Assembly (NCBI GenBank): GCA_022574675.1
Contig: JACZRO010000002.1
Span: 8,529 to 72,528 of the forward strand
Direction: 5' to 3'
From: Chloroflexota bacterium
Lineage (GTDB): Bacteria > Chloroflexota > Dehalococcoidia > Lucifugimonadales > Lucifugimonadaceae
DNA: 64,000 nt
Under the pieces are notes generated by a model that was not told where the DNA came from, ran no database searches, and worked only from the letters and a program-made list of their open reading frames with translations. Shown here piece after piece: positions 2,230-56,977 of this stretch. The position numbers and the translations under genes were made by a program. Each line of letters opens with the position of its first letter. Within the stretch, counting starts at the first letter, position 1.

Positions 2230-2315
2230 TCCCGGTTTCCGAGCCCGCCGGATTCCAGGGCCCGGCCCCACCGCGACCAGTCCGATCGTCCCGCGGGCTA
2301 CGCTGCTCCCTGGTC

Positions 2316-3699: not shown

Positions 3700-3737
3700 A
3701 AGAGCCGGCGCCAGTAAGTCGCTGGCTCTTCGTTTTT
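3700..3737 (+). terminator. Intrinsic terminator-like hairpin plus T-run
   Basis: AAGAGCCGGCG-ccagtaagt-CGCTGGCTCTT followed by CGTTTTT. No recognisable plus-strand gene lies upstream. Confidence 0.45.
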
Positions 3738-3806
3738 CCGTGTACCCGGGATTCCGTTTTCTGGCGGGAGCCGCGACTCCGGACATCACCAGCCCCCGCC
3801 CGCTGA

Positions 3807-4514
3807 TTAGCCGGGTTTACGCATCCGGGCGAGGATGTGCCGGCCACCGCTCGCCGAGTAACGCCGGTTGCCCGAGTTGATCACTTCCACCAACTGCCGC
3901 GCATCGATAAAACCGGCGTCCGTCAACAGGCTGGCCTCGACTTCCTTGGCCCTGAGGAAGGCCAGCGCCAGGTCGGTGACGTCATGGGAGAGCTCAAGCT
4001 CCATCCCGTACTGGGCGGCGATCGACTCGCCGGTCACCTCGCTCGACCCGAAGTAGTCGGTCAGGAGAAACCTCCCGCCCGGCTTGAGCACGCGATAAAT
4101 CTCCGGCGGATGATAGAAGCCCTCCGTCGATAACACGACATCAAACTGCCCGTCGTCAAAGCTGAGGGCGGTGTCGCGGTCCTGGACGAACTGGCACAGG
4201 TCTGCGACGCCTTCGATCTCCGCCAGATCTTCGGCCGTCACCAGCGCCCCTTCGTCAATGTCGTAACCCCAGACCCGGCACCCGTACAACGAAGCGAGCC
4301 AGCGAGCGTTGCCGCCGATTCCGCAGGCCGCGTCCAGGACGACCGTCTCCTCCGCTATTTCGACGCCCTGGAGCAGGATCCTGACCAGGGTCTGGTTCGC
4401 GCCAACGTGTTGGAATTCACCATACGGCTCGGCGTCCGGGCGCTCCCGTTCCACAAACCATTGCTGAAGCCGCTGTGTCTTGTTGGGCATGGTGCGTACT
4501 TTACCGGCTGCCAT
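3807..4514 (-). CDS. Class I SAM-dependent methyltransferase
   Basis: 235 aa. VLDAACGIGGNARWLA (motif I), DIDEGAL, VLKPGGRFLL. Confidence 0.8.
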   Translation of the reverse strand: MAAGKVRTMPNKTQRLQQWFVERERPDAEPYGEFQHVGANQTLVRILLQGVEIAEETVVLDAACGIGGNARWLASLYGCRVWGYDIDEGALVTAEDLAEIEGVADLCQFVQDRDTALSFDDGQFDVVLSTEGFYHPPEIYRVLKPGGRFLLTDYFGSSEVTGESIAAQYGMELELSHDVTDLALAFLRAKEVEASLLTDAGFIDARQLVEVINSGNRRYSASGGRHILARMRKPG

Positions 4515-4539
4515 GGGGTTAAGGCAGCCCGGGGTAGCG

Positions 4540-4935
4540 TCATACCTTCGGCGTCCAGGCGCCTTCGCAGGGCACGGCTTCTTCGTTCCCCGGCCAGGGC
4601 GGAAAGGTGGCGATCACGATCTCCAGGGGCGTCGCTCCGTCATTCCTGAACTGGAATCGCATTCCCGTCGCGATGCTCGCTCCGGACCCGGGGACGAGAT
4701 CGATCGTCTCCTCGGTCCCGTCCTGCGACCTCCACAATCTGCCTTTGCCGGAAATGCAGAGCCACGCCTCTTCGACCGTCCGATGGTGGACCGCTTTCGT
4801 GATCGCGCCCGGTGGCAGCGTGCAATGGACCATGCTGGCGCCGGCCGTCGCCACGCTCACAAAGCGAACCTCGGATCCATCCGGTGCGATCACGTCCGGC
4901 GTGGCAGGCAACAGGCGCGACTCGAACGGCGTCAT
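4540..4935 (-). CDS. Cupin-domain protein
   Basis: 131 aa. HHRTVEEAWLCISGKG...GASIATGMRFQFRN matches the two cupin motifs. Confidence 0.7.
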   Translation of the reverse strand: MTPFESRLLPATPDVIAPDGSEVRFVSVATAGASMVHCTLPPGAITKAVHHRTVEEAWLCISGKGRLWRSQDGTEETIDLVPGSGASIATGMRFQFRNDGATPLEIVIATFPPWPGNEEAVPCEGAWTPKV

Positions 4936-5116
4936 CCGCTCTCACCTTCCCTGATTTATGTATCGGGGCGTTACGGCGTGGGAGTTACTGCACGGACCGA
5001 GCGGCCGTTCAGGCTATCGGGCGACCATCGGGAATCGGCGAATCCCGCGATGAAATCCGCTAGCAGGTAAAAACTCCTCGACCTATCTTCGGGGAAACGC
5101 CATCTTTATTCGGACG

Positions 5117-5305
5117 GTGATGATAAACCCGGTGGCGAGCCACGCAGCGATTCACGTACATGCTTCCGAGGTGCTGACCGCCCTCGGCGCACTGGCTGTC
5201 GCCCAGGAAGAGGAACGGCCGGCAGACGAGGTGGATTCACTCGCCGGCGATGTTTCGAATGCGCTGGATGACTACCGGGAATCGCGAGGCGAGCTGGCCG
5301 CCTGA
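5117..5305 (+). CDS. Small acidic hypothetical protein
   Basis: 62-aa ORF with GC3-rich codons, followed 20 nt later by a strong intrinsic terminator. No family recognised. Confidence 0.35.
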   Translation: MMINPVASHAAIHVHASEVLTALGALAVAQEEERPADEVDSLAGDVSNALDDYRESRGELAA

Positions 5306-5325
5306 CCGGCAAATTCGTCGACGTC

Positions 5326-5353
5326 AACGCCCCGTTTGCCGGGGCGTTTTTTT
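5326..5353 (+). terminator. Rho-independent terminator
   Basis: AACGCCCCG-tttgc-CGGGGCGTT followed by a run of T (5347..5353). Confidence 0.7.
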
Positions 5354-5431
5354 ATCTGGATGCGCTTCCCCGTGCCGGCGAGGCACCCGTAGCCGCCTTT
5401 CCACACATTTTTCCGATCCCGGGCGCCGGAA

Positions 5432-5944
5432 TCAGTAAGTGACCAGCGAGTGAACCTCGTGGTCTTTCAGCACAGCCCGTCCGTTCAACGCGGCCAGTTC
5501 CACGACAAACGCCATGGCGAGTACCTGCGCGCCCAACCGTTCGATAAGCAGCGCCGCCGCCGCAGCCGTGCCGCCGGTGGCCAGCAGGTCATCCACCACC
5601 AGCACACTGTCACCCTGCTTCAGGGCGTCGGTCCGAATCTCCATGTGGCCAGCGCCGTATTCAAGTTCAAAGTCGACCCCGACCACCTCCGGCGGGAGCT
5701 TGTTCTCCTTGCGTAACGGGACGAAGGGGAGTCCCAGCCCCAACGCTATGGGCACGCCAAACATGAATCCCCGCGACTCGATGCCGGCTACCGCGTCGAT
5801 CGGCGCGTCCCGGTACTTGTCCACGAGGCTATTCACTGCGTAGCTGAACGCCTCCGGCGCCTTCCACAATGGTGTGAGGTCCCGGAACAGGACGCCGGGT
5901 TGCGGGTAGTCCGGGATATCACGGATCCAGTTCTTCAGGTCCAC
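5432..5944 (-). CDS. apt: Adenine phosphoribosyltransferase
   Basis: 170 aa. IRDIPDYPQPGVLFRDLTPL, GIESRGF, PRPP-binding loop VLVVDDLLATGGTA. Confidence 0.9.
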   Translation of the reverse strand: MDLKNWIRDIPDYPQPGVLFRDLTPLWKAPEAFSYAVNSLVDKYRDAPIDAVAGIESRGFMFGVPIALGLGLPFVPLRKENKLPPEVVGVDFELEYGAGHMEIRTDALKQGDSVLVVDDLLATGGTAAAAALLIERLGAQVLAMAFVVELAALNGRAVLKDHEVHSLVTY

Positions 5945-6047
5945 GGTCGACTCCAGCCGTTACCAGGGATCTCGCACGGTCGTGTTCGGGTTCAAGCAGA
6001 GTCTAATCGTGGGCACACGAACACGCACCCGAAGGTATGGCCCGGCA

Positions 6048-7151
6048 TTACGTCAACGGGTACAGCTCGGTCTCCGGATAGAAATCGGACCAGGCGAACC
6101 AGAACGACACAATGGAGTGGACCCGCTCAAGCTGCACGCCTTCCAGTTCCCCGTCGATCCCGCGTCCGGTGAACGGCAGGAAGCGCGAGCCCGTCGCCTT
6201 ATCGCGAAGCAGGACCGTGCCATCGTCATCGACCACCTGCTCAAACTCCAGGCGCCGTCCATTCACCACCCGGTTGTATACCAGGGCGGTATCGCTGTTC
6301 GGCTGAAAAAATATGACCACGTCCTTGCCCGCCACGGTGTCGTTCACGACCGGCATAGCTTCGAGCGCGGACAGGGGAAACGCCTTCGGCCCACCATCGA
6401 AGCCGATCCCGACGACCTTGTCCTTGCGTGCCAGGCGGTCGTCGACGATGGACTCGCCAATTACGCCGGCGTCGTTATTGACGTAGTACCCGTCATACGG
6501 ATCGGAGGAACCGCGGCGGCCCTTGTCCAGGACAGCCGTGTCGGGGTGCTCACGCACCCACTGGCCGTACGTCGTCTGTACGATCGGAATGGTCTCCAGG
6601 TACCGGCCGGCGAACTCACCCTTGACCCCGCGTGACAGGAACTGGCTCCAGAGAGTGCCGCTCTGGTGGTCGTACATCACCAGCGCGTTCATGATCAGCT
6701 TTCCGGACACACCAAATGTGTGCTCGACTCCGTCTATCGTCCGGGCATACCCGATGCCGGTGAAGCAAAGCGGTCACCAGGTGACGGCTATGGGAACCCC
6801 GCCGACGGTATCGTTCACGATCTCCCGTCCGCTCAGGAATGGTATCGAGTAAACGCGACTGTCCCCGTTTATCGTTACGCCCAGCACCGGCTCGTCGTCG
6901 TCGTACGTCTCGGCCTGTTCCGGTGAAATGAACCGCGGATTGAGAATCGCCTGGATGCCGTCCCGCGGCAGCAACGTGACGATCTCCAGCGTACGGTCGA
7001 GGGACGCAGGGTCATTTGGATCGCCCGGCAACACGATGGTCTCCTTGCTCAGTAGCGCAATCCGCAACGCTCCCGGTCCGCCCAGGACGAAGAACATGAC
7101 GAGGCCCGCGGCGGCCAGTCCCATGAACAGATATGACCTGGGAATCTTCAA
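6048..7151 (-). CDS. DUF3179-family exported protein with an in-frame TGA (6774..6776) at the first Cys of the conserved CPLC motif; candidate selenoprotein or nonsense pseudogene
   Basis: Track ORFs 6774..7151 and 6048..6710 share one frame. Read-through gives ...IVNDTVGGVPIAVTW[TGA]PLCFTGIGYARTIDGVEHTFGVSGKLIMNALVMYDHQSGTLWSQ..., and there is an N-terminal TM/signal anchor. Confidence 0.7.
6741..6760 (-). other. SECIS-like hairpin 13 nt downstream of TGA 6774..6776
   Basis: mRNA CCGGCAU-CGGGU-AUG(C)CCGG. 7 bp with one bulged C and a G-rich 5-nt loop. Confidence 0.4.
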
Positions 7152-7316
7152 CTGGAATTCCAGTCCCTTTTCCGGGGCGATTCACTGCGCCCTGGCTGTT
7201 CCGGGTTAATTTCCGAACTGATCGTTTAGATGAGGCAGAGCGCATCCCGGTTCCGCGGTGACGCGATCACCGAAAGATCGAGGCGCCGATGCTAAAATCC
7301 GTGCCCTCCGCGCTCC

Positions 7317-8579
7317 GTGGACATTCCTCCCGGCGGCGCTACCTCCAGGCAGACCGAACTCGCACCCGGGATTCCGCCCATCCGCATCACGAAACTCAGC
7401 CTCTCGAACTTCCGTAACTTCTCAGAATGCTCGCTCGACCTGGAGCCCGGGATAACGGTGTTCCAGGGACCGAACGGCCACGGCAAGAGCAACCTGATGG
7501 AGGCCGTCTACCTGATCGCTATCGCCAAGTCGCCGCGATCGTCTTCCGATCGCGAGCTTCTCGGGTGGGATGTGGTGCAAAACGGGGGCCACGTACAGAT
7601 CGCCGGCGTCGCCCGGGATGACGAGCTCACCGTGCAGGTCCAGATCGATTTCGACGTGATCCCGCGGCCTCCGGAGCCGGGGAGCGGCGGCGCGAGGCCG
7701 GCGCCGTCTGTGCGGAAAGAGTTGCGCATCAACGGCGTGCAGAGGTCGGCGGCGGATTTCGTCGGTGCGGTAAACGTGGTGGCGTTCTCGGCGGACGACA
7801 TCCAACTGGTCATGGGTGGACCGTCCGTCAGGCGAAGATACCTGGATATCCTGATCTCCCAGAGCGATCCACCGTATCTGAAGATGATCCAGCGTTACAG
7901 CCGTGTCGTGAATCAACGCAATCATCTGTTGCGTCAGATGCGCGAGGGCCGGGTCGGGTCGGACGAGCTTGAGTTCTGGAACGACCGGTTGGTGAACGAA
8001 GGGGCGGCGATCATCGAGCGACGCGGGCGCGCCGTGGAGCGGCTTGCCGAGGAGGCGGCACCGCGACACCTCGCCCTGTCCGGCGGGCGTGAGCGACTAG
8101 GCGTCCAGTACCGGCCGCGCGTCTCGGCGAACGCGGAGGACGGCCCAGACCCAGTCCCCACTTCGGCGTCGGAACTGGCGTCGATCATGCGCGCCTCGCT
8201 TGAGACGGTCAGGCCCCGCGAGATCGGCCAGGGCGCTACCGTCATCGGTCCTCACAGGGACGAGATCGCACTGAGCCTGAACGACGAGCCGGCGGGCGCG
8301 TTTTCGTCCCGCGGGCAGGCGCGCACCGCCGCGCTCGCGTTGCGTCTCGCCGAGGCCGCGTTCGTCACCTCTGCGACGGGCCGGACGCCGGTGCTCGCGC
8401 TGGACGACGTGCTGTCGGAGCTGGACCAAACTCGACGCAAGCTGGTGCTGGAGAACGTGGCTTCGTACGAGCAGGTGTTGATCACAACGACCGATTTCGA
8501 CCGCGTGGAGGACTCGTTCCTCTCGGGCGCGGCCCGGATGACGGTCGAGTCCGGTTCGGTGATTCGTGTCGACGGCTGA
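7317..8579 (+). CDS. recF: DNA replication and repair protein RecF
   Basis: ITKLSLSNFRNF..., Walker A GPNGHGKSNLMEA, C-terminal signature/Walker B LALDDVLSELD. GTG start. Confidence 0.9.
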   Translation: MDIPPGGATSRQTELAPGIPPIRITKLSLSNFRNFSECSLDLEPGITVFQGPNGHGKSNLMEAVYLIAIAKSPRSSSDRELLGWDVVQNGGHVQIAGVARDDELTVQVQIDFDVIPRPPEPGSGGARPAPSVRKELRINGVQRSAADFVGAVNVVAFSADDIQLVMGGPSVRRRYLDILISQSDPPYLKMIQRYSRVVNQRNHLLRQMREGRVGSDELEFWNDRLVNEGAAIIERRGRAVERLAEEAAPRHLALSGGRERLGVQYRPRVSANAEDGPDPVPTSASELASIMRASLETVRPREIGQGATVIGPHRDEIALSLNDEPAGAFSSRGQARTAALALRLAEAAFVTSATGRTPVLALDDVLSELDQTRRKLVLENVASYEQVLITTTDFDRVEDSFLSGAARMTVESGSVIRVDG

Positions 8580-9477
8580 CGTCTCCTCCGCGATCAGCGC
8601 GGCGGCGCAGCACATCGCATCGAGCGAATACGTCGTCGCCATGACCGGGGCCGGGATCTCCGTCGAGAGCGGCATTCCACCGTTTCGGGGTCCTGACGGG
8701 TTGTGGACGAAACACGGCACGCCTTCGCACAACGGATACCAGCGTTTCCTGGAGGATCCGGCTGCGTGGTGGCGCAGGGAGATGGAACGCTCCGTCGAGC
8801 CCTGGGTCGCCGAGTTGCGTCGAGCGGTCAGGAACGCCCGGCCGAACCCCGGCCACACCGCTCTCGCCGAGATGGAACGGGCCGGTTACGTGCGCTCCGT
8901 CATCACCCAGAACATCGACGGGCTGCACACGGACGCCGGCACGGAGAACATCGTGGAGATCCACGGGTCGAGACGATATCTTCGTTGCGTAGAGTGCGGC
9001 GACAAGACGCCGCGGACGTCCCTGTTCGCCACCGAGCCTGCCCCGCCCTGCAACGTCTGCGGCGGCCCGGTCAAGTACGACTCGGTGTTGTTCGGCGAGC
9101 CGATCCCGCCACGGGTCATGGAATCGGCCCGCGAGGAAACGAACCGCGCAGATTGCGTCCTGGTGATCGGCAGCTCGTCGACGGTGCGCCCGGCCGGTGG
9201 GCTGCCCCGGATCGCGCGCGCCAACGGGGCGAAGTTGATCGAGGTGAACACCTCCGGCACGCGTCTCACACCGGTTTGCGATGTGGTGATACAAGCCCCT
9301 GCGGCGATCGCTCTGCCGGCCTTGCTGGTCGAGCTGCGCCAGGTCGGCGTACCCCGGGGTGGCTTACCGGGGACGCCCGAACCGGACGAGGAACACCCAG
9401 AGCACGTGAGGTTTCCGGGAACTCGTCCGCAAAACCCGCCCGAACGCCGGCGTCGGAGAGGGCCGGGCGCAGAGTAA
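8566..9477 (+). CDS. NAD-dependent protein deacylase (Sir2 family)
   Basis: GAGISVESGIPPFRG, TQNIDGLH, zinc ribbon CxxC...CxxC (CVECG...CNVCG), VIGSS. Overlaps the recF stop by 14 nt. Confidence 0.85.
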   Translation: MSTADVSSAISAAAQHIASSEYVVAMTGAGISVESGIPPFRGPDGLWTKHGTPSHNGYQRFLEDPAAWWRREMERSVEPWVAELRRAVRNARPNPGHTALAEMERAGYVRSVITQNIDGLHTDAGTENIVEIHGSRRYLRCVECGDKTPRTSLFATEPAPPCNVCGGPVKYDSVLFGEPIPPRVMESAREETNRADCVLVIGSSSTVRPAGGLPRIARANGAKLIEVNTSGTRLTPVCDVVIQAPAAIALPALLVELRQVGVPRGGLPGTPEPDEEHPEHVRFPGTRPQNPPERRRRRGPGAE

Positions 9478-9534
9478 TATTCCGGCGCGCGCCGCGTGGC
9501 GATCGCATTCAGAGTTAGTTTCGGGGTCGTATCG

Positions 9535-10896
9535 ATGACAACCCAGGACGCGCTAGCCCAGGACGCACTCCGGGGCGAGATAGACACCTATATCGCGCAG
9601 AACCCAAAATCTGAAGCCCTCAACGCGGAGGCGGCCCGGTACCTCCCGGGCGGCGATTCCCGAAACTCGATCTACTGGCCGCCCTACCCCGCGTACATCG
9701 TGGGCGGCGAAGGGACGCGCATCACCGACGCCGACGGCAACGTCCGGACCGATTTCATCAACAACATGACGACGCTGATCGTCGGGCACCGCCACCCTGA
9801 CGTGGTCAAGGCCCTGCAGGACCAGGTCTCAGAGGGCTGGTCATACCCGGGGCCGTCGCCGTCCCAGATCCGCTGGGCGGAGATCCTGGTCGAGCGCGTG
9901 CCGTCCGTGGAACAGGTCCGGTTCGTCAACTCCGGCACCGAGGCCACGCTCAACGCCATTCGCGCCGCCCGGGCTTTTACCGGCCGCCAGAAGCTGGGCA
10001 AGATGGAGGGCGGATATCACGGCACCCACGACTCGGTGGCGGTGAGCGTCGCACCGAAACTTGACCTCGCGGGCGACGCCCTGAATCCGAACTCGGTGCA
10101 GGACTACGAGGGCCTGCCGTCGTGGGTGACGGAAGGCGCCGTGGTGATGCCGATCAACGACATCGAGGCCTGCGAAAGGATCATCCGGGCGAATGCCGGC
10201 GACCTGGCGTGTGTAATTGTCGAGCCTGTCAACGGGCGGAACGGGTTCGTTCCCGCCGAGCCCGGTTTTCTTGAGGGGCTGCGCGCCGTCACGAAAGAGC
10301 TCGGCGTCATCCTGATCTTCGACGAGGTGATCTCGTTCCGTGTGGCGCGCGGCGGCGCTCAGGAGCACTACGGCGTCACGCCGGACATGACCACGTTCGG
10401 CAAGGTGATCGGTGGCGGGCTGCCGGTCGGCGCGTTCGGCGGCCGCGCTGACATCATGTCGCTTTACGACCCGAGCAACGGCGCTCCACGGGTGCAGCAC
10501 GCAGGCACGTTCAACGGCAACCCGATGACGGCGGCGGCCGGTGTGGCGACGCTGGAGGCGGCGACGCCGGAGGTGTACGAGTACGTGGGCCGGATGGGGG
10601 GCGTGATCCGCGAACGGTTGCGGGCGCTGATCGCAGAGGTCGAGGCGCCGATGGGCGTGACGGGCGTCGAGTCGCTCTGGTGCCTGCAGTTCACGCCGGA
10701 ACGCGTGACCGATTACCGGACCTCGATGACGAACGACAAGGTGATGACCCGGTGCATGTTCCTCGGCCTCCAGAACGAGGGCTTCCTGCTCTCACCCAGT
10801 TGCCAGGGCACGGTGTCGTCCGTGCATACCGAGGAGGATGTCGACGGGTTGATAGCCGCGATCCGAAAGGTGCTCGGAAGACTGGGTTACGCCTAA
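9535..10896 (+). CDS. Class-III (PLP) aminotransferase, glutamate-1-semialdehyde aminomutase-like
   Basis: YLPGGDSRN..., VNSGTEATLNAIRAARAFTGR, GGYHG, FDEVISFRV, TFGKVIGGGLPVGAFGG. Start taken at ATG 9535; the ORF opens at 9496. Confidence 0.8.
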   Translation: MTTQDALAQDALRGEIDTYIAQNPKSEALNAEAARYLPGGDSRNSIYWPPYPAYIVGGEGTRITDADGNVRTDFINNMTTLIVGHRHPDVVKALQDQVSEGWSYPGPSPSQIRWAEILVERVPSVEQVRFVNSGTEATLNAIRAARAFTGRQKLGKMEGGYHGTHDSVAVSVAPKLDLAGDALNPNSVQDYEGLPSWVTEGAVVMPINDIEACERIIRANAGDLACVIVEPVNGRNGFVPAEPGFLEGLRAVTKELGVILIFDEVISFRVARGGAQEHYGVTPDMTTFGKVIGGGLPVGAFGGRADIMSLYDPSNGAPRVQHAGTFNGNPMTAAAGVATLEAATPEVYEYVGRMGGVIRERLRALIAEVEAPMGVTGVESLWCLQFTPERVTDYRTSMTNDKVMTRCMFLGLQNEGFLLSPSCQGTVSSVHTEEDVDGLIAAIRKVLGRLGYA

Positions 10897-10950
10897 GAAA
10901 TGATCTCAAAAGCCACCGCCCGGCATGCATGAACGACCTCCGCACGCCAA

Positions 10951-11048
10951 CGCATCGTAGGGGCCGCTGGCTACCGGCCCGGGTGGTGCGGCAGGGCGTG
11001 GAGCCGAGCAACTGTGCCGGAAAGGGCGGATAGTCAGCCGCCCCTACA
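10951..11048 (+). repeat. 98-nt composite palindromic element, copy A (two inverted GTAGGGGCsGCTGrCTAyCsGCCC units)
   Basis: Hand alignment to the reverse complement of 21169..21266 gives about 81/98 identical positions. The terminal units are mutually complementary. Confidence 0.75.
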
Positions 11049-11237
11049 CGGGTCTGTGAAACTATCTCAAAAGCTGTAGTCCAGTGCGGTCCCACGATGC
11101 AAAATTCGCCCGCGCCCGCAATCACATTCACCGGGCGAGACGGTTTTGAGATAGTCACTAAGGGGCTGCCACAAGAGACCACCAATCACGAGCCGATCAA
11201 AACCGGGGGAAGTGTTCTTCCACCGAGCCGGGCGGTG

Positions 11238-11816
11238 TCAGCCGGTGAAAGGGAATTCGCGTATCACGCGCCGCTCCCCGTCCGGTCCCGTGCCAACACG
11301 TCCCGTCAGGCTAAGGCGGTCCACTGTGAACTCCTCGAGATCAAACTCCGCAACGAGCCGGGTTCCGAGCTTTTTCGCCGACTCGGGTATCCGCTGGAAA
11401 TAGGTCAGATGAGGGTGGTAATCGGCCGGGTCGTGATAGGCGTTGGTCGCCGTCGGCAGTACGGCCCGCGCCAGCCGGTCATGCAGCGACTGTAGTTCCG
11501 GGGTGACCTCGATCCGTGCCGTGGACAACAGGAGGCCGTCCGGCGACCCCCAGATTTCGCCCGTTGGCGTCATGGTCAAGGCCCCTGTCCCCATCACCGC
11601 TTCGGCCACCTGCTCGCAGACGCGATCCACGCTCTCGATCTCGCAGAAAGCGCCCAGGGCGGTCACGTGCGCCTGGAACATGGGCCATGCAGGACGAAGT
11701 TGATCGCGAAGGCGCTGGACCCGGGAAGCGATCGGCTCTGGCGCCGCCAGTACCAGGCCGTAGACGCTGTAACCGTGTACGTCGTTCGGACGGTAGCTTG
11801 CGTCGATTATCTGCAT
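11238..11816 (-). CDS. 2H-phosphoesterase superfamily protein (LigT / 2'-5' RNA ligase-like)
   Basis: Two HxT motifs (FQAHVTALG and HPHLTYFQ). Start moved to ATG 11816 because the upstream 39 codons consist of a repeat unit (11841..11863). Confidence 0.6.
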   Translation of the reverse strand: MQIIDASYRPNDVHGYSVYGLVLAAPEPIASRVQRLRDQLRPAWPMFQAHVTALGAFCEIESVDRVCEQVAEAVMGTGALTMTPTGEIWGSPDGLLLSTARIEVTPELQSLHDRLARAVLPTATNAYHDPADYHPHLTYFQRIPESAKKLGTRLVAEFDLEEFTVDRLSLTGRVGTGPDGERRVIREFPFTG

Positions 11817-12996: not shown

Positions 12997-14739
12997 CTAC
13001 AACGAAGGCGACGTTTGTGTCCGGCTCTGTAAACGTTGTTGTTCTCGGGCCATGTACTGATGTATCTGCGGGACCGCGGCCGCTCCTTCGCCCACCGCCG
13101 AGGCCACTCTTTTGATCGAGCCATCGCGCACGTCACCTGCGGCGAATACGCCTGGAATACTGGTCTGCAAAAACAGGGAGTCCGGCCAACCTTCTAGCCG
13201 ATCCCTGACGGCGTCTCCAGTAACGATGAAGCCAAAGTCATCGCATTGGAGCGTGTCTTTGAGCCACTCGGTTCGAGGACGAGCCCCGATCAGGATGAAT
13301 ACCCCATGGGCCGGTTCTGTCCAGGTCTTTCCTGTCCGGTTGTCTCGTAGTTCCAGTGATTCGAGTAAATGTTCGCCGTTGGCCCTTACCATCTCCGTGT
13401 TTGTGGCAACGTTGACGTTTGCGGTGGCATCGATCTCTCTAATCAAATAGTCGGACATCGATGTAGCAAGCGAACTGCCCCGCACCAGGATCGTGACCCT
13501 GTCCGCGAACCTGGCGAAGTACACGGCGGCCTGACCGGCAGAGTTCCCGCCTCCCACGACAAAAACTTGCCTTCCAGTCATCGCGGGCGCTTCAGTTTTC
13601 GCGGCTCCGTAATAAACGCCGCGACCGGTCAACTCATTGAGGCCAGGTTGGTCCAGTAACCGGTAGGACACTCCGCAGCAGATCAAAACGGCCCGGGTGT
13701 TTACCTGAACGCCGTCGTCCAGGGTCAACCGCTTCATCCCATCAACAACCTCCAGTTTGGCCACCTCTCGGCAGAAATCGATTTCGGAGCCGAGAAGCCA
13801 CGACTGATTTATGGCTTTTAGAGCCAGATCGGTGCCACCGATTCCGGACGGGAAACCCATGTAGTTGCGGATCCGAGTACTTGTCCCGGCCTGCCCACCG
13901 GGCGCCTCCGATTCGACCATCACCGTTTTAAGGCCTTCCGAGGCCGCGTTCACCGCCGCGCTGAGTCCCGCAGGGCCGGCGCCGACAATCACCAGGTCGT
14001 ATCCCCCGGGGTCGTATTCGATGAACGCACCCATGGCCGCGGCCAGTTCGTGTTTGTTCGGTGACAACAGTACGCGCCCGTCGAGAAACCGCAGGGCGGG
14101 CAGGTCTTCAACTGATACGTTCATGCTCTTCGCAAGTTCCTGACCGGCGGGAGACTCGTAGTCGATGAAGCCGGTGGGACAAATGGACCGATCCAGGACG
14201 TCCCGTAGCCATACGGTAAAGGAGTCATTCGCTCGGCCAAGAATCGAAACGGATTCGAACCGTGGCAGGTTAGCCTGGGCCCAGTCAGTCAGGAGAATGC
14301 TGAGCTCCCTGTGGAACTTCTCGTCAGGATTCACCAGCGGTTTCAAAAAGACGGCGTCGGCCACGCCTGAAGCCATCGCCATTAACACCCGGTCGCTGAC
14401 GGCCGAGTTTGACAACCCTCCCCATGCCGTCACCATCAACGCTCGCTTGGTGTTGGGCCAGCGTTGCCGGCACTTTTCCAGCAAGGCTGAACAGCCCGAT
14501 ATGTCGGCGGCCGACAGCCAGATCGCGACCCTCTCTTCACCCGTCGCTAGCTCGATCTCCCTTTCGGCATCCTTCGTCGTTCCGTGCACGCGGATGGAGT
14601 AGTCAGATCTGTACCTGCTCTCAAGAGCCTGCTGAAGTAACAGGCGATGCTCCGCGTTCTCGTCGATCGCGATGATGAAAGGCTTGTCCATCAGACATAT
14701 CCGTTTCTTGTGTTGATGCAAGAACTCACGGTCAGGCAC
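12997..14739 (-). CDS. Three-domain flavoprotein: receiver-like N-terminus, thioredoxin/glutaredoxin-like middle, and thioredoxin-reductase-like FAD/NAD(P) domain lacking the CxxC
   Basis: DLVIVGAGPAGLSAA, VFVVGGGNSAGQAA, GVFAAGDVRDGSIKRVASAVGEGA. Where TrxR has CATCDG this protein has YGAAKTEA. The start could instead be ATG 14691. Confidence 0.75.
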   Translation of the reverse strand: MPDREFLHQHKKRICLMDKPFIIAIDENAEHRLLLQQALESRYRSDYSIRVHGTTKDAEREIELATGEERVAIWLSAADISGCSALLEKCRQRWPNTKRALMVTAWGGLSNSAVSDRVLMAMASGVADAVFLKPLVNPDEKFHRELSILLTDWAQANLPRFESVSILGRANDSFTVWLRDVLDRSICPTGFIDYESPAGQELAKSMNVSVEDLPALRFLDGRVLLSPNKHELAAAMGAFIEYDPGGYDLVIVGAGPAGLSAAVNAASEGLKTVMVESEAPGGQAGTSTRIRNYMGFPSGIGGTDLALKAINQSWLLGSEIDFCREVAKLEVVDGMKRLTLDDGVQVNTRAVLICCGVSYRLLDQPGLNELTGRGVYYGAAKTEAPAMTGRQVFVVGGGNSAGQAAVYFARFADRVTILVRGSSLATSMSDYLIREIDATANVNVATNTEMVRANGEHLLESLELRDNRTGKTWTEPAHGVFILIGARPRTEWLKDTLQCDDFGFIVTGDAVRDRLEGWPDSLFLQTSIPGVFAAGDVRDGSIKRVASAVGEGAAAVPQIHQYMAREQQRLQSRTQTSPSL

Positions 14740-49623: not shown

Positions 49624-50532
49624 TTGGAACAGTCAATGGAAATCACCGCGATAAGTCAGCCCCCGGTATGGAGAGGTTATCTCTGGCCGGCGCTGCTCAC
49701 GCTCTCCGTACTCGGGTTTGCTGCGATCGCCGGATTCATCTGGCGAGACGGCGGTGTTGTCACCGCGAACATACTCAGCCTCCAGGGTCAATCCGAGGGC
49801 CAGGTCAGCGCCCTTAGCAGCATCATCCCCCTGGGATTCGCGTTCACGGTCGGCATGGTCGCCACGCTCAACCCCTGCGGCTTCGTGATGTTGCCCGCCT
49901 ACCTTGGTCTGTACATCGGCACCGACGACGGCGACAATTCCGTCAAACTCGGTCGCCGGATGGTCAGCGCCGGAAGCGTGAGCATGTCCGTCGGTCTCGG
50001 TTTCATCGTGTTGTTCGGCGCAGTTGGGCTGATCATCACCTCCGTGACGACCTCGATCGTGCAGTACTTTGACTGGGTCGGGCTGGGCGTCGGGATCATC
50101 ATGGGTGGCACGGCGATGTACGTCCTGGCGGGCGGAAAGCTGTACAACAGGTTCGCAGCCAACACCTCGGCCAAGATCGGTGACCCGCGCGACAGCACGC
50201 TTGTCGGATACTTCCTGTTCGGGATCAGTTACGCCGTAGCATCGCTCGGCTGCACGCTTCCGCTGTTCCTGGCGGTCGTGGCCAGCTCAGCTACGGGGAG
50301 TTTCCTGTTCGGGGCCTCGCAATTCGTCTCTTACGCCCTGGGCATGACGTTTATCTTCGCGGTGCTGACCCTGAGCGTCGCCCTGTTCAAGGGCGTGATG
50401 GTCAAATGGATGCGCAAGGCGATGCCATACGTCCAGCCTGCGTCGGCGGTGCTCCTGCTCCTCGCAGGCGCTTACCTGATCTTCTACTGGCTGACGGTCG
50501 GGGGCCTCGCGGACGTTATCGCCCAGGCATGA
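49624..50532 (+). CDS. Cytochrome c biogenesis CcdA/DsbD-type transmembrane thiol-disulfide transporter
   Basis: Polytopic. VATLNPCGFVMLPAYLG and a second Cys-containing helix (VASLGCTLPLF). Confidence 0.75.
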   Translation: MEQSMEITAISQPPVWRGYLWPALLTLSVLGFAAIAGFIWRDGGVVTANILSLQGQSEGQVSALSSIIPLGFAFTVGMVATLNPCGFVMLPAYLGLYIGTDDGDNSVKLGRRMVSAGSVSMSVGLGFIVLFGAVGLIITSVTTSIVQYFDWVGLGVGIIMGGTAMYVLAGGKLYNRFAANTSAKIGDPRDSTLVGYFLFGISYAVASLGCTLPLFLAVVASSATGSFLFGASQFVSYALGMTFIFAVLTLSVALFKGVMVKWMRKAMPYVQPASAVLLLLAGAYLIFYWLTVGGLADVIAQA

Positions 50533-53332: not shown

Positions 53333-53548
53333 TCAGCCAGCGCCGGACAACGCCTCACTCTGTTTTGGCGGGCAGCGGCGGTCCGCGTAGGAGCAAAAGA
53401 CGCAGCATTCGCCTTCCTTCGGCCGGAGCAGCTCGCCGCACGACGTGCAGTCGTAGAACACCTGTCAGGTGTCGGCCGGCATTGTCTCCCGTTTCGCGGC
53501 GCCACAGGCCGGACAGGTCAGTACGGCTTCCAGAAATATCTTCGGCAT
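53333..53548 (-). CDS. GDCCVxC-type small Cys-rich protein with in-frame TGA at codon 28 (53465..53467); candidate selenoprotein
   Basis: Hand translation: MPKIFLEAVLTCPACGAAKRETMPADT[TGA]QVFYDCTSCGELLRPKEGECCVFCSYADRRCPPKQSEALSGAG*. Not in the ORF track because of the TGA. Confidence 0.7.
53440..53454 (-). other. SECIS-like hairpin 10 nt downstream of TGA 53465..53467
   Basis: mRNA ACGAC-UGCAC-GUCGU. Confidence 0.35.
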
Positions 53549-53635
53549 CGTCTCGTTCCCTCTTGCCGGTCTCCGTTGCCGGGCCGGGGAGTTGTTGTTC
53601 ATAGCTGGTGGTTAGAGGGCGGCCGTTCGCGCGCC

Positions 53636-54349
53636 TCAGCAGTCACACGCGATCTCGTCATCTGGGTCGCCGACCCTCTCCTCCGCGTCAACTCGCCACA
53701 TGGTGCCGATGAGCCGGCCGCCGGACGTCGCGACCAGGATGCGATCGACGTTACGCGCCTGCATCCGTTCCAGAATCGGCGCCGCCTCGGCGTCTGGGCG
53801 GGATGTGGTCGGGCCGAGCTCCATGATGTCCTCGACGACAGCTGCGGGGTCGCCCGCCAGCGCCGGAGCACGCAGCCGGCCGAGGATGATCCGTTGTTCG
53901 TTGACGACAATGCACTGGTCCTGGTTCGCGGCGCGCGCGCGCTCGGCCGCATCTCCGACGGTATCCTCCAGCGCGCAGGTCACGTCGTCCGTCCGAGCCA
54001 CGTCAGCAGCCCGGAGGACGGGCATTGCGTCGCCCTCGCGCGGCAATCCTGCGGCGAACCAGTCCGCCTTTCCCGCCTCGTAGTCATATACGTTTGTAAA
54101 GCCAAGGGATTCAAGCCGCGCCGCGGCTCGTAGACTCATGTCTCAAGTCGCGTCGTGTCAGTACAGGACGACCGGGCGGGCGCGATCGAGGACGGCCGCG
54201 GTGTCCCGGTTGAGCTTCTTGAGGGGGAGGTTGATGGCGCCGGGCAGACGGCCCTCGGCGTACTCGCGGGCCGGGAGCACGTCGACGAGCTGGGTATCCT
54301 CATCGTCGAGCATTCTCTGAAGTTCATCTCGTGAAACCGTCGTTGGCAT
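53636..54349 (-). CDS. Rhodanese-domain + CBS-pair protein with two in-frame TGA codons (54158..54160 and 54143..54145) in the active-site loop; candidate di-selenocysteine protein
   Basis: Track ORFs 54158..54349 and 53636..54139 are in one frame. Read-through gives ...DRARPVVLY[TGA]HDAT[TGA][34 protein letters not shown]..., followed by a CBS pair. Confidence 0.7.
54114..54128 (-). other. SECIS-like hairpin 14 nt downstream of the second TGA (29 nt from the first)
   Basis: mRNA AGCCG-CGGCG-CGGCU. Confidence 0.35.
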
Positions 54350-54382
54350 TCGATTTTCCTTCCAATCAGGCCCATCGCCGCG

Positions 54383-54925
54383 TCAGATCGCTTCTTCTAT
54401 GTACTGCGCCAATCGGTCGTACCCCACCGGGGGGCCGCTGTAGACCACTCGATGGTCACGGTCCAGCACTACCGTGTGTCCGAGAACCCGTACCCGGAAA
54501 TCCGAGACGAGTTTCCCGTCCGGCGCCACAGCCCAGGACACGTCGGCCGCCCCTTTAGACCGCCAGTACTGGACCCAGCTTTGTAGTGGATCCCCGTAGA
54601 TGTCGATCGCTACCGTTCGCAGCCCCTCGCTTCGATACTTCTCTTGAAGCGCCCCGAGGACTGGAGCCTCCAGTCCGCATGTCGGTCAGCCAACGAACGA
54701 AAAATAGATGACGAGCGGCCGGTCGGCATGGTCCACGAGGCGGAACTCGGACATCTCCAGGGTCCCTTCACCCACCGCGTCGGCGACCTGAATCGAAAAC
54801 TCCGGAGAGGGCGGCCGGCCGGAGACCAGTTCTTCTGAGGTTCTCTCCGAGCTTTGGCAGGCGATGGTCGCGATCATTCCGATTACGACCACCGCGCCTA
54901 TAAATGGCAAGCGGATCAATCTCAC
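54383..54925 (-). CDS. TlpA/ResA-like thioredoxin-fold protein (signal/lipoprotein-like N-terminus) with in-frame TGA (54686..54688) at the first Cys of CxxC; candidate selenoprotein
   Basis: Read-through gives ...DRPLVIYFSFVG[TGA]PTCGLEAPVLGALQEKYRSEGLRTVAIDIYGDPLQSWVQYWRSKGAADVSWAVAPDGKLVSDFRVRVLGHTVVLDRDHRVVYSG...*. N-terminus MRLIRLPFIGAVVVIGMIATIAC. Confidence 0.7.
54658..54676 (-). other. SECIS-like hairpin 9 nt downstream of TGA 54686..54688
   Basis: mRNA GGACUGGA-GGC-UCCAGUCC (8-bp perfect stem; or 7 bp with loop AGGCU). Confidence 0.45.
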
Positions 54926-55095
54926 CGGCTCTGCTCTTCCCCCGCCGTCAACTCCGGCGCGGGCTTCTCCGCGTCGCGTAAATCAAGCTCGGTCTCGTCA
55001 CCCTCGTGAGCCCTCGATCTCAGTCCTCTGACGGCGACCACCGCCGCAATGGCGATCGGTATGCAACATACCGCTGCGGCTAGAAAAAAAGGCAC
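54922..55095 (-). CDS. Small single-pass membrane protein with a vicinal Cys pair in the TM helix
   Basis: GTG 55095 preceded by GGGGGA. (M)PFFLAAAVCCIPIAIAAVVAVRGLRSRAHEGDETELDLRDAEKPAPELTAGEEQSR*. Its stop overlaps the GTG start of the next gene (GTGA). Not in the ORF track. Confidence 0.45.
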   Translation of the reverse strand: MPFFLAAAVCCIPIAIAAVVAVRGLRSRAHEGDETELDLRDAEKPAPELTAGEEQSR

Positions 55096-55139
55096 CTGTC
55101 ATCCCCCTAAAGTTCCCGTGTCCTCAGTCCAACTGGCGT

Positions 55140-55811
55140 TCAGGCGTACTTCAACAAGGAAGCCCAGGCTTGCTTTCCGAGATCGAACGCATCCGGCAAC
55201 GATAGGAAGACGACTTTCATGTCCCTGCCCTCGGACCACTCTTTTGCCTCAGCCTGATTCGCAAAGAAATGGACTTGCTGGCAGAACGTCATGTAGATGG
55301 ACTCGATAGAACTTCCGTCATCGCCTGCCGGGTCCAGCATGATCATGGATACGACGGCATCCGGGTGACTGCTCGACGACACGCCCTCCGGCGTGACGGT
55401 CAACGTGATCGACTCTCCCGATGACGGAGAATTGGATACGACCAGGGCTTCTTTGCCGAGGGCCGGCGGCAGGAACAACGAATCCCACGCGCACCAGGTA
55501 CTCAGTCGAACGCCGGATACGGTGAACTGGTGCGGGTGCTCGTTGAGCGACAGGCCCGCTACACCGAGGATGTTGTCGTCATCATCTCGTTCAGATATCT
55601 CCCGTACGAACGCCTCGGCGGCATCTCGATCCACGCCCAGGGCGTCGGAGATCTCGGAAACGTCGGCCGGCCGGATCGGATCGCCTTCGGCCAACCGTCG
55701 CCATATTGCGATCAGAACCCGGGCGTCGTCGGATCCAAACAAAGGCGGTATGCCGGCGGAGTTCAGATTTTCGGCGATTTCTCCGATGGTCAGCTGCGTG
55801 TTGGTCGTCAT
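55140..55811 (-). CDS. merB: Organomercurial (alkylmercury) lyase MerB
   Basis: LSTWCAWDSLFLPPALGKEALVVSNSPSSGESITLTVTP and TFCQQVHFFANQAEAKEW align with the MerB catalytic regions (YAWCALDTLIFPALIG... / SFCCHVHFFAS...). The Cys-Asp-Cys triad is conserved. Confidence 0.85.
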   Translation of the reverse strand: MTTNTQLTIGEIAENLNSAGIPPLFGSDDARVLIAIWRRLAEGDPIRPADVSEISDALGVDRDAAEAFVREISERDDDDNILGVAGLSLNEHPHQFTVSGVRLSTWCAWDSLFLPPALGKEALVVSNSPSSGESITLTVTPEGVSSSSHPDAVVSMIMLDPAGDDGSSIESIYMTFCQQVHFFANQAEAKEWSEGRDMKVVFLSLPDAFDLGKQAWASLLKYA

Positions 55812-55858
55812 TTCACGATTCTCTGTTGTTTACTCGCCTGTTAGCGCGTTTCTTTGTC

Positions 55859-56215
55859 TTACCGGAGCGTCTGGCAGGCGATGACCTGCTCGGCGTTATC
55901 TGCCAGCACTTGCTCTGCGCCTCGGAGGAGGTCCGCTACGCGGTCATCTCCGATGGAATAGATCACTCTCTTGCCGTCGCGCACGGACGCCACGAGCCCG
56001 CACCACTTGAGACAGGCGAGGTGCGTCGAAATCCTGCTCTGGGACCCTCCTGTGCCTTCCACGAGTTCGCCCACGCTTTGCGGGCCTTCGTCCAGAAGAA
56101 GTTTCAATATTCGGACCCGGGTAGGATCGCCGAGCGCCCGGAAGAACTTGGCCAGCAGGTCGGCTTGAGCCGCCAACAATTCCTGCGTGCGCTCTCGAGT
56201 TAGCGTTGTGGTCAT
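55859..56215 (-). CDS. ArsR/SmtB-family metalloregulator
   Basis: FFRALGDPTRVRILKLLLDEGPQSVGELVEGTGGSQSRISTHLACLKWCGLV. The Cys pair in the recognition helix region is a possible metal site. Confidence 0.85.
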   Translation of the reverse strand: MTTTLTRERTQELLAAQADLLAKFFRALGDPTRVRILKLLLDEGPQSVGELVEGTGGSQSRISTHLACLKWCGLVASVRDGKRVIYSIGDDRVADLLRGAEQVLADNAEQVIACQTLR

Positions 56216-56233
56216 AGTTCACTTCCATGTATT

Positions 56234-56284
56234 CGCAATTGCGGATATGAGGTACATGATGACCCAGAATTGCGATTGACGCAA
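56234..56284. promoter_or_regulatory. Candidate operator palindromes upstream of the ArsR-family gene
   Basis: CGCAATTGCG (56234..56243, perfect palindrome) and TTGCG-attga-CGCAA (56270..56284). Both contain AATTGCG. Confidence 0.3.
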
Positions 56285-56330
56285 GCGCGATCGAATTGGA
56301 GGCAGACGCTTGTCTGACGGACCAATGGCG

Positions 56331-56393
56331 TTCGAGGACGGAGCGCCGACCGGCGTCAGGGGTGGCCGGGTGGTGCGGTCCGAGGACGGCTAG
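56331..56393 (+). pseudogene. Relic copy of the D-aminoacylase 3' end (direct repeat of 53194..53256)
   Basis: 52/63 nt identical by hand alignment. Encodes FEDGAPTGVRGGRVVRSEDG* versus LEDGSPTGVRAGRVVRSADG* at the real gene end. Confidence 0.55.
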
Positions 56394-56977
56394 TCCGCGA
56401 GCTTCGACCAGGTCTCGGCCCAGGCCAGGACGGCGCTGCTGGTGGGCCGGCCGAAGCGATTCTCTTCGTACGGCTCGCCGGCCGCAAAGTCGCCGTCGAC
56501 GGTGATCCTCGCCTCACGCGCCTGCACGAAGGTCGTCCACGCGCTCAACGGTATCTGGCCTTCACCCCTGCCGCCCGGCATGTGCATCACAAAGGCGGGC
56601 TGAAGGTCGGTCCATGTCAGCGAGAACTCCTCGGCGTCTGAGGTGACGAACTCGGTCGAGTACGAGCGGGCGTCGCCCTCGCGAAGAAACTCGGCATCGC
56701 GGACCGGCAGGGATGTATCGGCGTGGCGCGGGTACAGAAACCCCTGGATATTGACCTGCAGGAAGCGTGCGAGGGCGATGTTGTCGCTGTAGACGCGCGC
56801 CTCGCCCCCGGTCATCTCGCCTTCGTAGAACAGAACGTGGCCGGGTCCGGCGGGGGTCCACAGCACACGCCAGTGGCTCGCGCGCTCCGTGATCGTCTCG
56901 CCGCCGTCGCGGCTGAGCCTGATGAACGAGTTCTCGCCGACGAGGATAACTTCGCCGTTATCGATGATGGGAGGCAT
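56390..56977 (-). CDS. Hypothetical protein (195 aa)
   Basis: Protein-like ORF. No family recognised. Confidence 0.5.
   Translation of the reverse strand: MPPIIDNGEVILVGENSFIRLSRDGGETITERASHWRVLWTPAGPGHVLFYEGEMTGGEARVYSDNIALARFLQVNIQGFLYPRHADTSLPVRDAEFLREGDARSYSTEFVTSDAEEFSLTWTDLQPAFVMHMPGGRGEGQIPLSAWTTFVQAREARITVDGDFAAGEPYEENRFGRPTSSAVLAWAETWSKLAD

Follow-up and report, generated by a model that had tools for sequence, protein, structure and literature searches.

A predicted selenocysteine-rich, ArsR-controlled mer-type operon without MerA in a 64-kb stretch of a Chloroflexota genome

How do bacteria that encode the organomercurial lyase MerB without the reductase MerA handle the Hg(II) that results? 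About half of the MerB-encoding genomes lack MerA, and the handling of their Hg(II) is an open question (PMC8261052). The question is raised by a six-gene operon on contig JACZRO010000002.1 of a Chloroflexota bacterium, which we analyzed within a stretch of 64,000 nucleotides (called the window throughout). The operon covers positions 53333-56215 and consists of six co-oriented open reading frames (ORFs), all mapped to the minus strand: an ArsR/SmtB regulator (g1), a MerB-family lyase (g2), a 57-aa membrane peptide with two adjacent Cys (g3, called CC peptide for simplicity), a TlpA/redoxin-like protein (g4), a rhodanese joined to a pair of CBS domains (g5) and a small Cys-rich GDCCVxC protein (g6). 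From g1 to g6 the intergenic distances are 47, 44, -4, 33 and 87 nt, the negative value corresponding to a GTGA stop/start overlap between g3 and g4. A minus-strand block of six genes with one such overlap was the layout given in a first-pass annotation of this DNA, and the ORF coordinates and spacing bear it out. Functional statements rest throughout on sequence and gene neighbourhood; on this footing, the locus is predicted to be a selenocysteine-rich, ArsR-controlled operon of mer type, with no MerA in the window.

Four in-frame TGA codons are found in the operon, one in g4, two in g5 and one in g6, and all four fall on columns occupied by conserved Cys in homologs. The g4 TGA takes the place of the leading Cys of W-C-x-T-C, as seen in Cys homologs from mer-type loci, and the two TGAs of g5 align with both Cys of VYC-x4-CD[LM]S in full-length Cys-type rhodanese-CBS homologs. 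The g6 TGA occupies a column that is invariably Cys in the D-A-C-Q-x-x-Y-x-C segment of GDCCVxC proteins from proteobacteria. The same operon is present in two independent metagenome assemblies from different BioSamples, L098 (SAMN16252660) and L099 (SAMN18835368), at 99.5-99.7% nucleotide identity (one segment at 98.6%), and since both retain all four TGAs, sequencing errors are excluded. L098 aligns in two segments, which are 99.7% and 98.6% identical to the window; it has an insertion of about 220 nt (L098 5869-6089) between the CC peptide and TlpA-like genes, and the end of its peptide is altered. Both g5 TGAs are retained in orthologs at 81-87% identity in the two closest operon relatives (L001, L002) and at 56% identity in a related operon (L005). 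The g6 TGA is retained in L001, L002, L098 and L099, and L005-7, which is 35% identical, has kept the UPTC motif of g4 (U, selenocysteine, Sec). TGA also ranks first among the ordinary stop codons of the window (23 of 49 genes). The genetic code is therefore standard with Sec recoding, and the reading that TGA stands for some other amino acid was ruled out for the same reason.

Hairpins of the type of a selenocysteine insertion sequence (SECIS) lie downstream of the TGAs. When benchmarked against 1428 coding positions of the window, the folding energies after the TGAs are unexceptional for GC-rich DNA (fractions 0.15-0.6). As these energies are not unusual, the single-sequence evidence was set aside and comparative evidence was used. 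The g5 hairpin located 20 nt past the second UGA has the family form (C)GAGCCGC-GNG-GCGGCUC(G), and its codons hardly vary over 81 Sec-form sequences (Ala GCC 81/81, Ala GCG 81/81, Arg CGG 80/81, Leu CTC 77/81), compared with a synonymous entropy of 1.4-2.0 bits at Ser, Pro, Leu, Gly, Thr and Val positions that lie right next to the hairpin and are equally conserved. At the stem base, the Arg codon shows G/A variation only, either of which can pair with U, and this type of hairpin is lost in an all-Cys counterpart of the operon (L008). For g4, the hairpin GGACUGGA-GGC-UCCAGUCC corresponds to GCGCUGGA-GGC-UCCAGCGU in L005, with the same 17-nt spacing and two compensatory pair changes; taken by itself, its folding energy does not stand out significantly from the background of the window. 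The g6 hairpin is identical in L001 and L002, a comparison of three independent sequences only. An extra stem of at least 6 bp after the first UGA was seen in 13/16 U-x4-U rhodanese forms versus 7/66 C-x4-U forms, in three sequence variants. In this small sample, it gives a weak hint that the small hairpin at 54133-54149 could be the SECIS of the first g5 UGA, and U-x4-U forms may carry tandem SECIS elements for two UGAs 15 nt apart. An Rfam scan of the operon region returned no SECIS and no other meaningful RNA family. Cys alignment, conservation in orthologs and the downstream hairpins agree with the earlier proposal that g4, g5 and g6 are candidate selenoproteins. Sec decoding is also backed by a DUF3179 gene with W-U-P-L-C in another part of the window. 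Recoding of UGA at the Cys-aligned positions of g4, g5 (twice) and g6 is a well supported prediction, and we are highly confident that the three products are selenoproteins. The features of the operon are listed in Table 1.

Table 1. Positions of the operon genes, their Sec codons, putative regulatory and SECIS-type elements, and the CcdA-like gene nearby.
Feature	Position in window	Strand	Basis
Candidate ArsR operator, imperfect palindrome with halves TATCCGCAA and TTGCGAATA	56230..56247	-	inverted repeat; 15-32 nt upstream of ArsR start
g1, ArsR/SmtB regulator, CmtR type	55859..56215	-	NF033788 and alignment to CmtR 2JSC
g2, MerB-family organomercurial lyase (predicted), '117alt' type, without Sec	55140..55811	-	Pfam MerB and alignment to 3f2g
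g3, 57-aa single-helix membrane peptide, AVCCIP	54922..55095	-	CC-x-x-P motif, operon position
g4, TlpA/redoxin-like selenoprotein (predicted), U-P-T-C	54383..54925	-	Pfam Redoxin and alignment of Cys homologs
g4 Sec codon TGA	54686..54688	-	in-frame, Cys-aligned
g4 SECIS-type hairpin GGACUGGA-GGC-UCCAGUCC	54658..54676	-	loop begins 17 nt past UGA
g5, cytosolic rhodanese and CBS pair, double selenoprotein (predicted), U-HDAT-U	53636..54349	-	Pfam Rhodanese and CBS
g5 first Sec codon, catalytic-Cys position	54158..54160	-	in-frame TGA, Cys-aligned
g5 second Sec codon, loop position +5	54143..54145	-	in-frame TGA, Cys-aligned
g5 small hairpin GACUUG-AGACA-UGAGUC	54133..54149	-	downstream of first UGA, encloses second UGA
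g5 SECIS-type hairpin CGAGCCGC-GGC-GCGGCUUG	54112..54130	-	loop 20 nt past second UGA, 35 nt past first
g6, GDCCVxC small cytosolic Cys-rich selenoprotein (predicted)	53333..53548	-	NF041374
g6 Sec codon TGA	53465..53467	-	in-frame, Cys-aligned
g6 candidate SECIS hairpin CUGCAC-GUC-GUGCGG	53436..53450	-	loop begins 20 nt past UGA
CcdA/DsbD_TM-like membrane protein, outside operon	49624..50532	+	Pfam DsbD_TM, homology to L005 CcdA

The g5 protein matches Pfam Rhodanese with 68 bits, plus CBS, and belongs to a family for which NCBIfam holds no model. The AlphaFold2 model of a Cys homolog (pLDDT 93) comprises a rhodanese domain and a CBS pair, and its fold matches in the PDB are single-domain rhodaneses and CBS pairs. 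Classical rhodaneses have at position i+5 a side chain in contact with the atom that the catalytic Cys carries. In g5 the rhodanese fold and the catalytic position are present, and the six-residue loop ends with Sec instead of Arg, Ser or Thr. We typed this loop in 90 rhodanese-CBS loci, 80 from a scan of a genome collection and the remainder found earlier. The scan was seeded with a window-like sequence, which favors Sec forms. The types were C-x4-U (67), U-x4-U (18), C-x4-C (3) and G-x4-C (1), and one locus on a truncated contig was untypeable. Sec was thus present at the first loop site in 18/90 loci and at the second site (+5) in 85/90; the last position was Sec or Cys and never Arg, Ser or Thr (one untypeable). 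In the subclade around the window the C-terminus is rich in Cys (IACDC in g5, SCCCCKD and VCCCCEP in others).

The neighborhood of the rhodanese-CBS genes was inspected in the 80 genome loci within a radius of 7 kb. With a median flank of only about 10 kb, the counts are lower bounds from short contigs, and they stand without a formal control set. ArsR was found in 21/80 loci, MerR-family regulators in 13, MerA in 12 (six of them at a distance of 29-160 nt), CcdA in 10, HMA proteins in eight and MerB in six. Rhodanese-CBS proteins with the C/U-x4-U loop form a widespread selenoprotein family with an association to mer loci, an observation that we did not find in the searchable literature.

The g6 protein is a member of the NF041374 family, 'GDCCVxC domain-containing (seleno)protein', with 97.4 bits (curated cutoff 40). 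Nine of its 71 residues are Cys or Sec, in the pattern CPxCG...U...CxxCG...CCVFC...C, and its instance of the family motif is GECCVFC. The family is the 'GOS_B' selenoprotein of an ocean-sampling survey (PMC13188914). It is present on 354 plasmid records, and on annotated plasmids, including a Tn5563-type element, it follows merR-merT-merP without merA. Within 5 kb of GDCCVxC genes in 80 metagenome loci, for which the seeding favored Cys forms, we found MerR in 32 loci, MerP/HMA in 30, MerT in 25 and MerA in two; as for rhodanese-CBS, these are lower bounds from short contigs that stand without a formal control set. In merRTP modules without merA, GDCCVxC regularly comes fourth, another association that we did not find in the searchable literature. 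In such modules the gene typically begins about 10 nt past merP (metagenome loci L100-L179, plasmids L011-L013), and Tn5563-type elements with GDCCVxC are located on clinical Pseudomonas and Klebsiella plasmids. The Tn5563-type module has been termed a 'defective mer locus' in a description that leaves its GDCCVxC gene unmentioned (PMC4785139).

The regulator g1 matches the ArsR/SmtB model NF033788 with 89.5 bits (cutoff 55), and its best PDB match is CmtR (Rv1994c; PDB 2JSC), a Cd/Pb-sensing repressor. Cys57 and Cys61 of CmtR align with Cys67 and Cys71 of g1, which form a Cys-x3-Cys pair in the region of the recognition helix, and as in CmtR a C-terminal Cys (Cys114) is added. The score against the CmtR model itself (68 bits) is below the equivalog cutoff of 150, which makes g1 CmtR-like and not CmtR; matches to the BigR and TsoR models are weak. 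An ArsR/SmtB regulator with a Cys pair, as annotated at first, is thus confirmed, and the ArsR orthologs of L005 and of a Chloroflexi locus with a complete mer system (L018) share the Cys pattern. The palindrome upstream of g1 is retained upstream of the orthologous ArsR gene in L002 and is a candidate operator of the regulator.

The g2 protein matches Pfam MerB with 97 bits (cutoff 27) and the NCBIfam MerB equivalog with 151.6 bits, which is under the cutoff of 193. Its segments WCAWD and FCQQVHFF align in PDB 3f2g with the equivalents of Cys96, Asp99 and Cys159 (R831b numbering), so the Cys-Asp-Cys triad is intact, as first annotated. Ser replaces Cys117, which places the protein in the '117alt' class of Christakis et al. 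(PMC8261052), for which lyase activity is putative. The protein is 100% identical to MCH8816260.1 (IIC92_00775), encoded on an 83.6-kb contig of a Chloroflexi metagenome-assembled genome (MAG). The nearest other MerB relatives (47-54% identity) adjoin an alpha/beta-hydrolase-GerE regulator and have no Sec genes nearby, and a metagenome scan with MerB alone as query gave no close relatives. As the closest relatives of g2 sit in unrelated contexts, recruitment of MerB into the operon seems likely. A general association between this MerB clade and selenoproteins was rejected, the nearest homologs of g2 being found in unrelated, Sec-free contexts.

No family match was obtained for g3 in profile searches. 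The peptide shares the CC-x-x-P motif with transmembrane helix 1 of MerT, and g3 has in common with the peptides in equivalent positions of L001, L002, L005 (three copies) and L018 the pattern A-x-CC-x-x-P within a single hydrophobic helix. A membrane peptide with a vicinal CC that resembles Hg(II) transporters had been noted before, and the comparison with MerT supports it. The g4 protein matches Pfam Redoxin (PF08534) with 35.5 bits (cutoff 26.6) and scores far below the ResA model (21 vs 170). Its N-terminus reads as charged, then hydrophobic, then Cys23, and the protein is probably exported or membrane-anchored. About 3 kb from the operon, a gene on the opposite strand encodes a protein with 25.8 bits for Pfam DsbD_TM, just below the cutoff of 27.1, that is 43% identical to the CcdA-like gene within the Sec-rich operon L005. 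It is a probable electron donor for an extracytoplasmic g4.

Related loci indicate which of the six genes belong together. The closest operon relatives (88-95% ArsR identity) share the chromosomal site of the operon, which is bordered by a 195-aa protein plus a Rieske gene and, opposite, by a 536-aa amidohydrolase. The core that they conserve comprises ArsR, the CC peptide, rhodanese-CBS with U-x4-U and GDCCVxC with U. L001 has these four genes at the shared site. L002, a Caspian MAG (GCA_027623795.1), has the four and DUF3105, followed by MerR-family, HMA, CcdA and thioredoxin genes; the Cys pattern of the MerR-family regulator beside this operon fits no Hg-versus-Cu assignment. The six-gene block is thus not one conserved unit, contrary to what its first description implied, and MerB and the TlpA-like UPTC protein are, as judged from these relatives, additions in this lineage that behave as accessory modules. 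The GC content is 0.58-0.60 over the ArsR, MerB, peptide and TlpA genes (54300-56400) and 0.65-0.68 in the flanks and the rhodanese and GDCCVxC genes; this dip is compatible with a later insertion of part of the operon and does not prove it.

Three further loci show other combinations of the same modules. L005 (ENA ERZ23486734 scaffold_19144, 240-4734) is a relative of the operon in which four proteins seem to contain five Sec codons between them: a glutaredoxin-like protein (UHFC), a thioredoxin-fold protein (UPVC), a rhodanese U-x4-U-CBS protein with a CCCC tail and a TlpA protein (UPTC). Its order is ArsR, glutaredoxin-like UHFC protein, CC peptide, thioredoxin-fold UPVC protein, rhodanese-CBS, TlpA, two CC peptides, CcdA and a MerE-like protein, the last carrying CPCHLP. 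L018 (CALFMN010000156.1, approximately 2500-11500, Chloroflexi) is a full mer locus with MerA, CcdA, rhodanese(C-x4-U)-CBS, CmtR-like ArsR, CC peptide and MerB. Its MerA has an NmerA domain, CVNVGC and a C-terminal CC, and a second MerA-like paralog is located upstream. In L008 (JGI Ga0131077_10000620, 4023-6669), MerB is divergent from ArsR, which is followed by a 72-aa protein, a 108-aa protein with a weak YHS match, a 103-aa protein and rhodanese-CBS; MerR-family and cation-efflux genes are nearby. With Cys throughout, this locus can serve as a system for comparison.

In the window itself, tblastn gave no match to MerA, MerT, MerP, MerR or the MerE-like protein, as the first-pass annotation had stated for merA, merP, merT and merR, and the combination that marks a classical mer operon (MerA and MerR with MerT/MerP or MerC/E/F) is absent. 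The description 'without MerA' is true of the window and does not extend to the protein families, which co-occur with MerA elsewhere. The suggestion that the operon handles mercury gains a comparative link to mer systems through GDCCVxC next to merTP, rhodanese-CBS near MerA and MerB, the CmtR-like ArsR and the CC-x-x-P motif, and loses the argument of a conserved block. On balance we lean towards an operon under CmtR-type control that handles some thiophilic metal, with mercury or organomercury as the most probable one, and that has interchangeable modules and three Sec-containing carrier or redox proteins.

Such an operon could work as follows. Binding of metal to the three Cys of the CmtR-type ArsR would derepress the operon. 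Outside the membrane, the Sec-containing g4, kept reduced via a CcdA-type protein, would bind or condition Hg species in the manner of MerP, or keep the entry site reduced, and the CC-x-x-P peptide might pass them on through the membrane as a minimal relay, in the way of the first helix of MerT/MerF. In the cytosol, MerB would break the C-Hg bond, and the freed Hg(II) could pass to the Sec/Cys pair of the rhodanese loop (i, i+5), to the Cys-rich tail of g5 and to the Cys/Sec cluster of the GDCCVxC protein. Finally, Hg(II) could either be sequestered in a stable Se/S-Hg complex or go on to a reductase or an exporter whose gene lies in another part of the genome. The most specific version of this scheme places it in pelagic Chloroflexota, where MerB would demethylate methylmercury, Hg(II) would be trapped on the U-x4-U loop of rhodanese-CBS and the GDCCVxC cluster instead of being reduced by MerA, and the Sec-TlpA protein and the mini-MerT peptide would feed the pathway; we regard this version as doubtful.

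Several points weigh against a mercury-handling role. MerB and the TlpA-like gene are absent from the closest orthologous operons, L001 and L002, and g2 is a divergent '117alt' MerB under the equivalog cutoff, for which lyase activity is a prediction. Hg binding by any of the operon proteins is something we infer, and the rhodanese and TlpA folds normally serve to transfer sulfur and reduce disulfides rather than to carry metal. For sensors of CmtR type, Cd and Pb are the known metals, not Hg. Related loci also contain CopZ-like HMA and generic MerR-family genes, and 47/80 rhodanese-CBS genome loci have no recognizable metal gene nearby. A merA gene may exist elsewhere in the genome, beyond the 64-kb window. 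Haft and Gwadz consider dependence on selenoproteins an odd design for a resistance system. Finally, none of selA, selB, selC and selD is present in the 64-kb window or the fetched loci; a tRNA-Sec search of all fetched loci found none, and the sole tRNA in the window is tRNA-Pro.

The alternative that survives best is an operon for thiol/selenol redox repair and sulfur/selenium trafficking under metal or thiol-stress control, with MerB as a passenger; selenium or sulfur trafficking under metal control had also been proposed in the first-pass annotation. The rhodanese-CBS protein would then carry persulfide or perselenide, extracytoplasmic Cys would be re-reduced by the TlpA-like protein together with CcdA, and GDCCVxC would be a zinc-ribbon-type redox or regulatory protein, so that the operon would mitigate soft-metal damage rather than carry metal; in a variant, the rhodanese would supply sulfide or selenide to precipitate HgS or HgSe. 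The domain identities (rhodanese, CBS, redoxin) are those expected of such a system, CcdA and thioredoxin- or glutaredoxin-like genes recur in related loci, many rhodanese-CBS loci are free of metal genes nearby, and some members of the ArsR family sense sulfur species, BigR and TsoR being among the weak matches of g1. However, the tight merT-merP-GDCCVxC linkage, the position of rhodanese-CBS directly beside merA, the MerT-type CC-x-x-P peptides together with the MerE-like protein, and the three-Cys sensor of CmtR type all go unexplained, and Cys or Sec at loop position +5 in place of Arg, Thr or Ser would suggest a dithiol/selenol site over a persulfide cradle. We regard this alternative as unlikely, though the most serious of the rivals.

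Less probable still is that the same machinery is directed at a different soft metal or organometal, for example Cd, Pb, Cu(I)/Ag(I), As/Sb, organotin or organolead; its MerB-like enzyme would then act on a bond between carbon and a metal other than mercury. By structure and by sequence, the regulator has the Cd/Pb sensor CmtR as its best relative, related loci include HMA/CopZ-like proteins, MerR-family regulators and a CDF transporter, the MerB is of the divergent '117alt' variant under the equivalog cutoff, and Haft and Gwadz raise the same possibility for the MerB-like SaoL. On the other hand, the best-characterized partners of these families elsewhere are mer genes (MerA, MerT, MerP, MerE-like), and the catalytic triad of MerB is canonical.

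That the TGAs are ordinary stops, sequencing errors or pseudogene lesions and the ORFs fragments would agree with gene callers splitting these genes (called genes of 63 and 167 aa in related loci), with the many database entries that begin at the Met after the second g5-type TGA, with the unremarkable single-sequence hairpin energies in GC-rich DNA and with the lack of Sec machinery in the window, but is scarcely credible when every one of the four TGAs is Cys-aligned and identical in independent assemblies, frame and protein conservation continue past the TGAs in dozens of species, the synonymous sites of the hairpin are invariant in Sec forms only and the g4 hairpin carries compensatory changes.

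Compared with classical mer operons, the preferred mercury-handling operon shares the MerB-family triad, the CC-x-x-P of MerT helix 1, a set of extracytoplasmic and cytosolic carriers of dithiol type and a metal-sensing repressor, and the same accessory families occur inside MerA-containing loci of other Chloroflexota and Actinomycetota (L018 and others). It differs in that the window has no MerA, MerR, MerT or MerP, the regulator is of ArsR/CmtR type, the transporter candidate is a single helix of 57 aa, and the carriers are TlpA-like, rhodanese-CBS and GDCCVxC proteins using Sec. With Tn5563-type merR-merT-merP-GDCCVxC modules, which are of mercury-uptake type and occur on plasmids and transposons of proteobacteria, it has in common the same GDCCVxC family (about 58% identity) as last gene and the absence of MerA, whereas those modules have Cys where the window has Sec, encode a true MerR and MerT/MerP, and contain no MerB, rhodanese-CBS or TlpA-like genes.

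Two described multi-selenoprotein operons are also similar. The selenocysteine-assisted organometallic (SAO) system (Haft and Gwadz 2023) has a MerB-like SaoL and a SaoT with UPTC. Like the operon in the window it combines several selenoproteins with a MerB-family protein and a thioredoxin-fold protein able to carry UPTC, and in both Sec or doubled Cys recurs in several proteins, which suggests a common soft-metal ligand. In contrast, SaoL has a CU motif where the MerB of the window has no Sec, and SAO includes an ABC transporter and SaoC/D/E/T and is restricted to anaerobes. The Tso 'three selenoprotein operon' (Haft and Tolstoy 2025), as given in PMC13188914, has an ArsR-type regulator TsoR and TsoB, a rhodanese/DsbD fusion with U-x4-U. 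The likeness lies in the ArsR/SmtB regulator, the U-x4-U rhodanese, a DsbD/CcdA-type partner and the presence of several selenoproteins. However, g1 reaches 46.7 against the TsoR cutoff of 115 and g5 37.9 against the TsoB cutoff of 805, for the rhodanese part only; g5 has a CBS pair instead of the DsbD fusion, and homologs of TsoA/C/X/Y are absent. In the NCBIfam scan, no protein of the window reached an SAO or Tso model cutoff.

The first-pass annotation had known of no such system in the literature, and this is true in part. GOS_B, UxxC redoxins, TsoB, SAO and Tso are already catalogued: redoxin/TlpA-like UxxC proteins and DUF3179 (UxxC) are listed selenoproteins (PMC13188914), as are five rhodanese forms including the U-x4-U of TsoB (PMC13188914). 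The link of rhodanese-CBS and GDCCVxC to mer is unreported in the literature searched. As far as the accessible texts go, no publication was found that connects either family with mer systems; none was found that names GDCCVxC, and none that joins rhodanese, mercury, selenocysteine and Chloroflexi. The catalog of Haft and Gwadz contains no mercury-resistance selenoprotein, and a selenoprotein review lists only a putative MerT-like one.

Rhodanese-CBS, GDCCVxC and the CC-x-x-P mini-peptides are thus candidates for mercury handling without MerA, and GDCCVxC closes merA-less merRTP modules on clinical plasmids as well. If these proteins bind or pass on Hg(II), the mer paradigm would have to be revised, a biochemical handle on Hg-Se interplay would be gained, and methylmercury turnover in deep ocean water, the habitat of these Chloroflexota, would be concerned. 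Trapping of MerB-released Hg(II) by selenoproteins, if true, would be the first Sec-dependent route of mercury detoxification and a molecular basis for microbial Hg-Se antagonism, possibly ending in inert Hg-Se species. A practical consequence concerns public annotation, in which gene calls systematically break up rhodanese-CBS and TlpA-like genes into fragments; most database proteins of the rhodanese-CBS family start at the Met after the second TGA.

The operon is flanked by chromosomal housekeeping genes, identified from their translations as RecF, IF-2, NusA, ProRS, IspG, RseP, Dxr, PyrH, RpsB and Ccm proteins. No match came from scans for consensus promoters and terminators. The two Pyr_redox_2 proteins of the window are of thioredoxin-reductase type. 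A 580-aa protein encoded at 12997-14739 on the minus strand has an N-terminal region of about 240 aa without family match and a thioredoxin-reductase-like flavoprotein domain, and gave no tblastn match to the MerA query. Outside the operon, a DUF3179 gene at 6048-7151 (minus strand) is split by an in-frame TGA at 6774-6776, the U of T-W-U-P-L-C. Pfam DUF3179 is matched with 285 bits over its full length, through this TGA, which makes the gene a further selenoprotein candidate.

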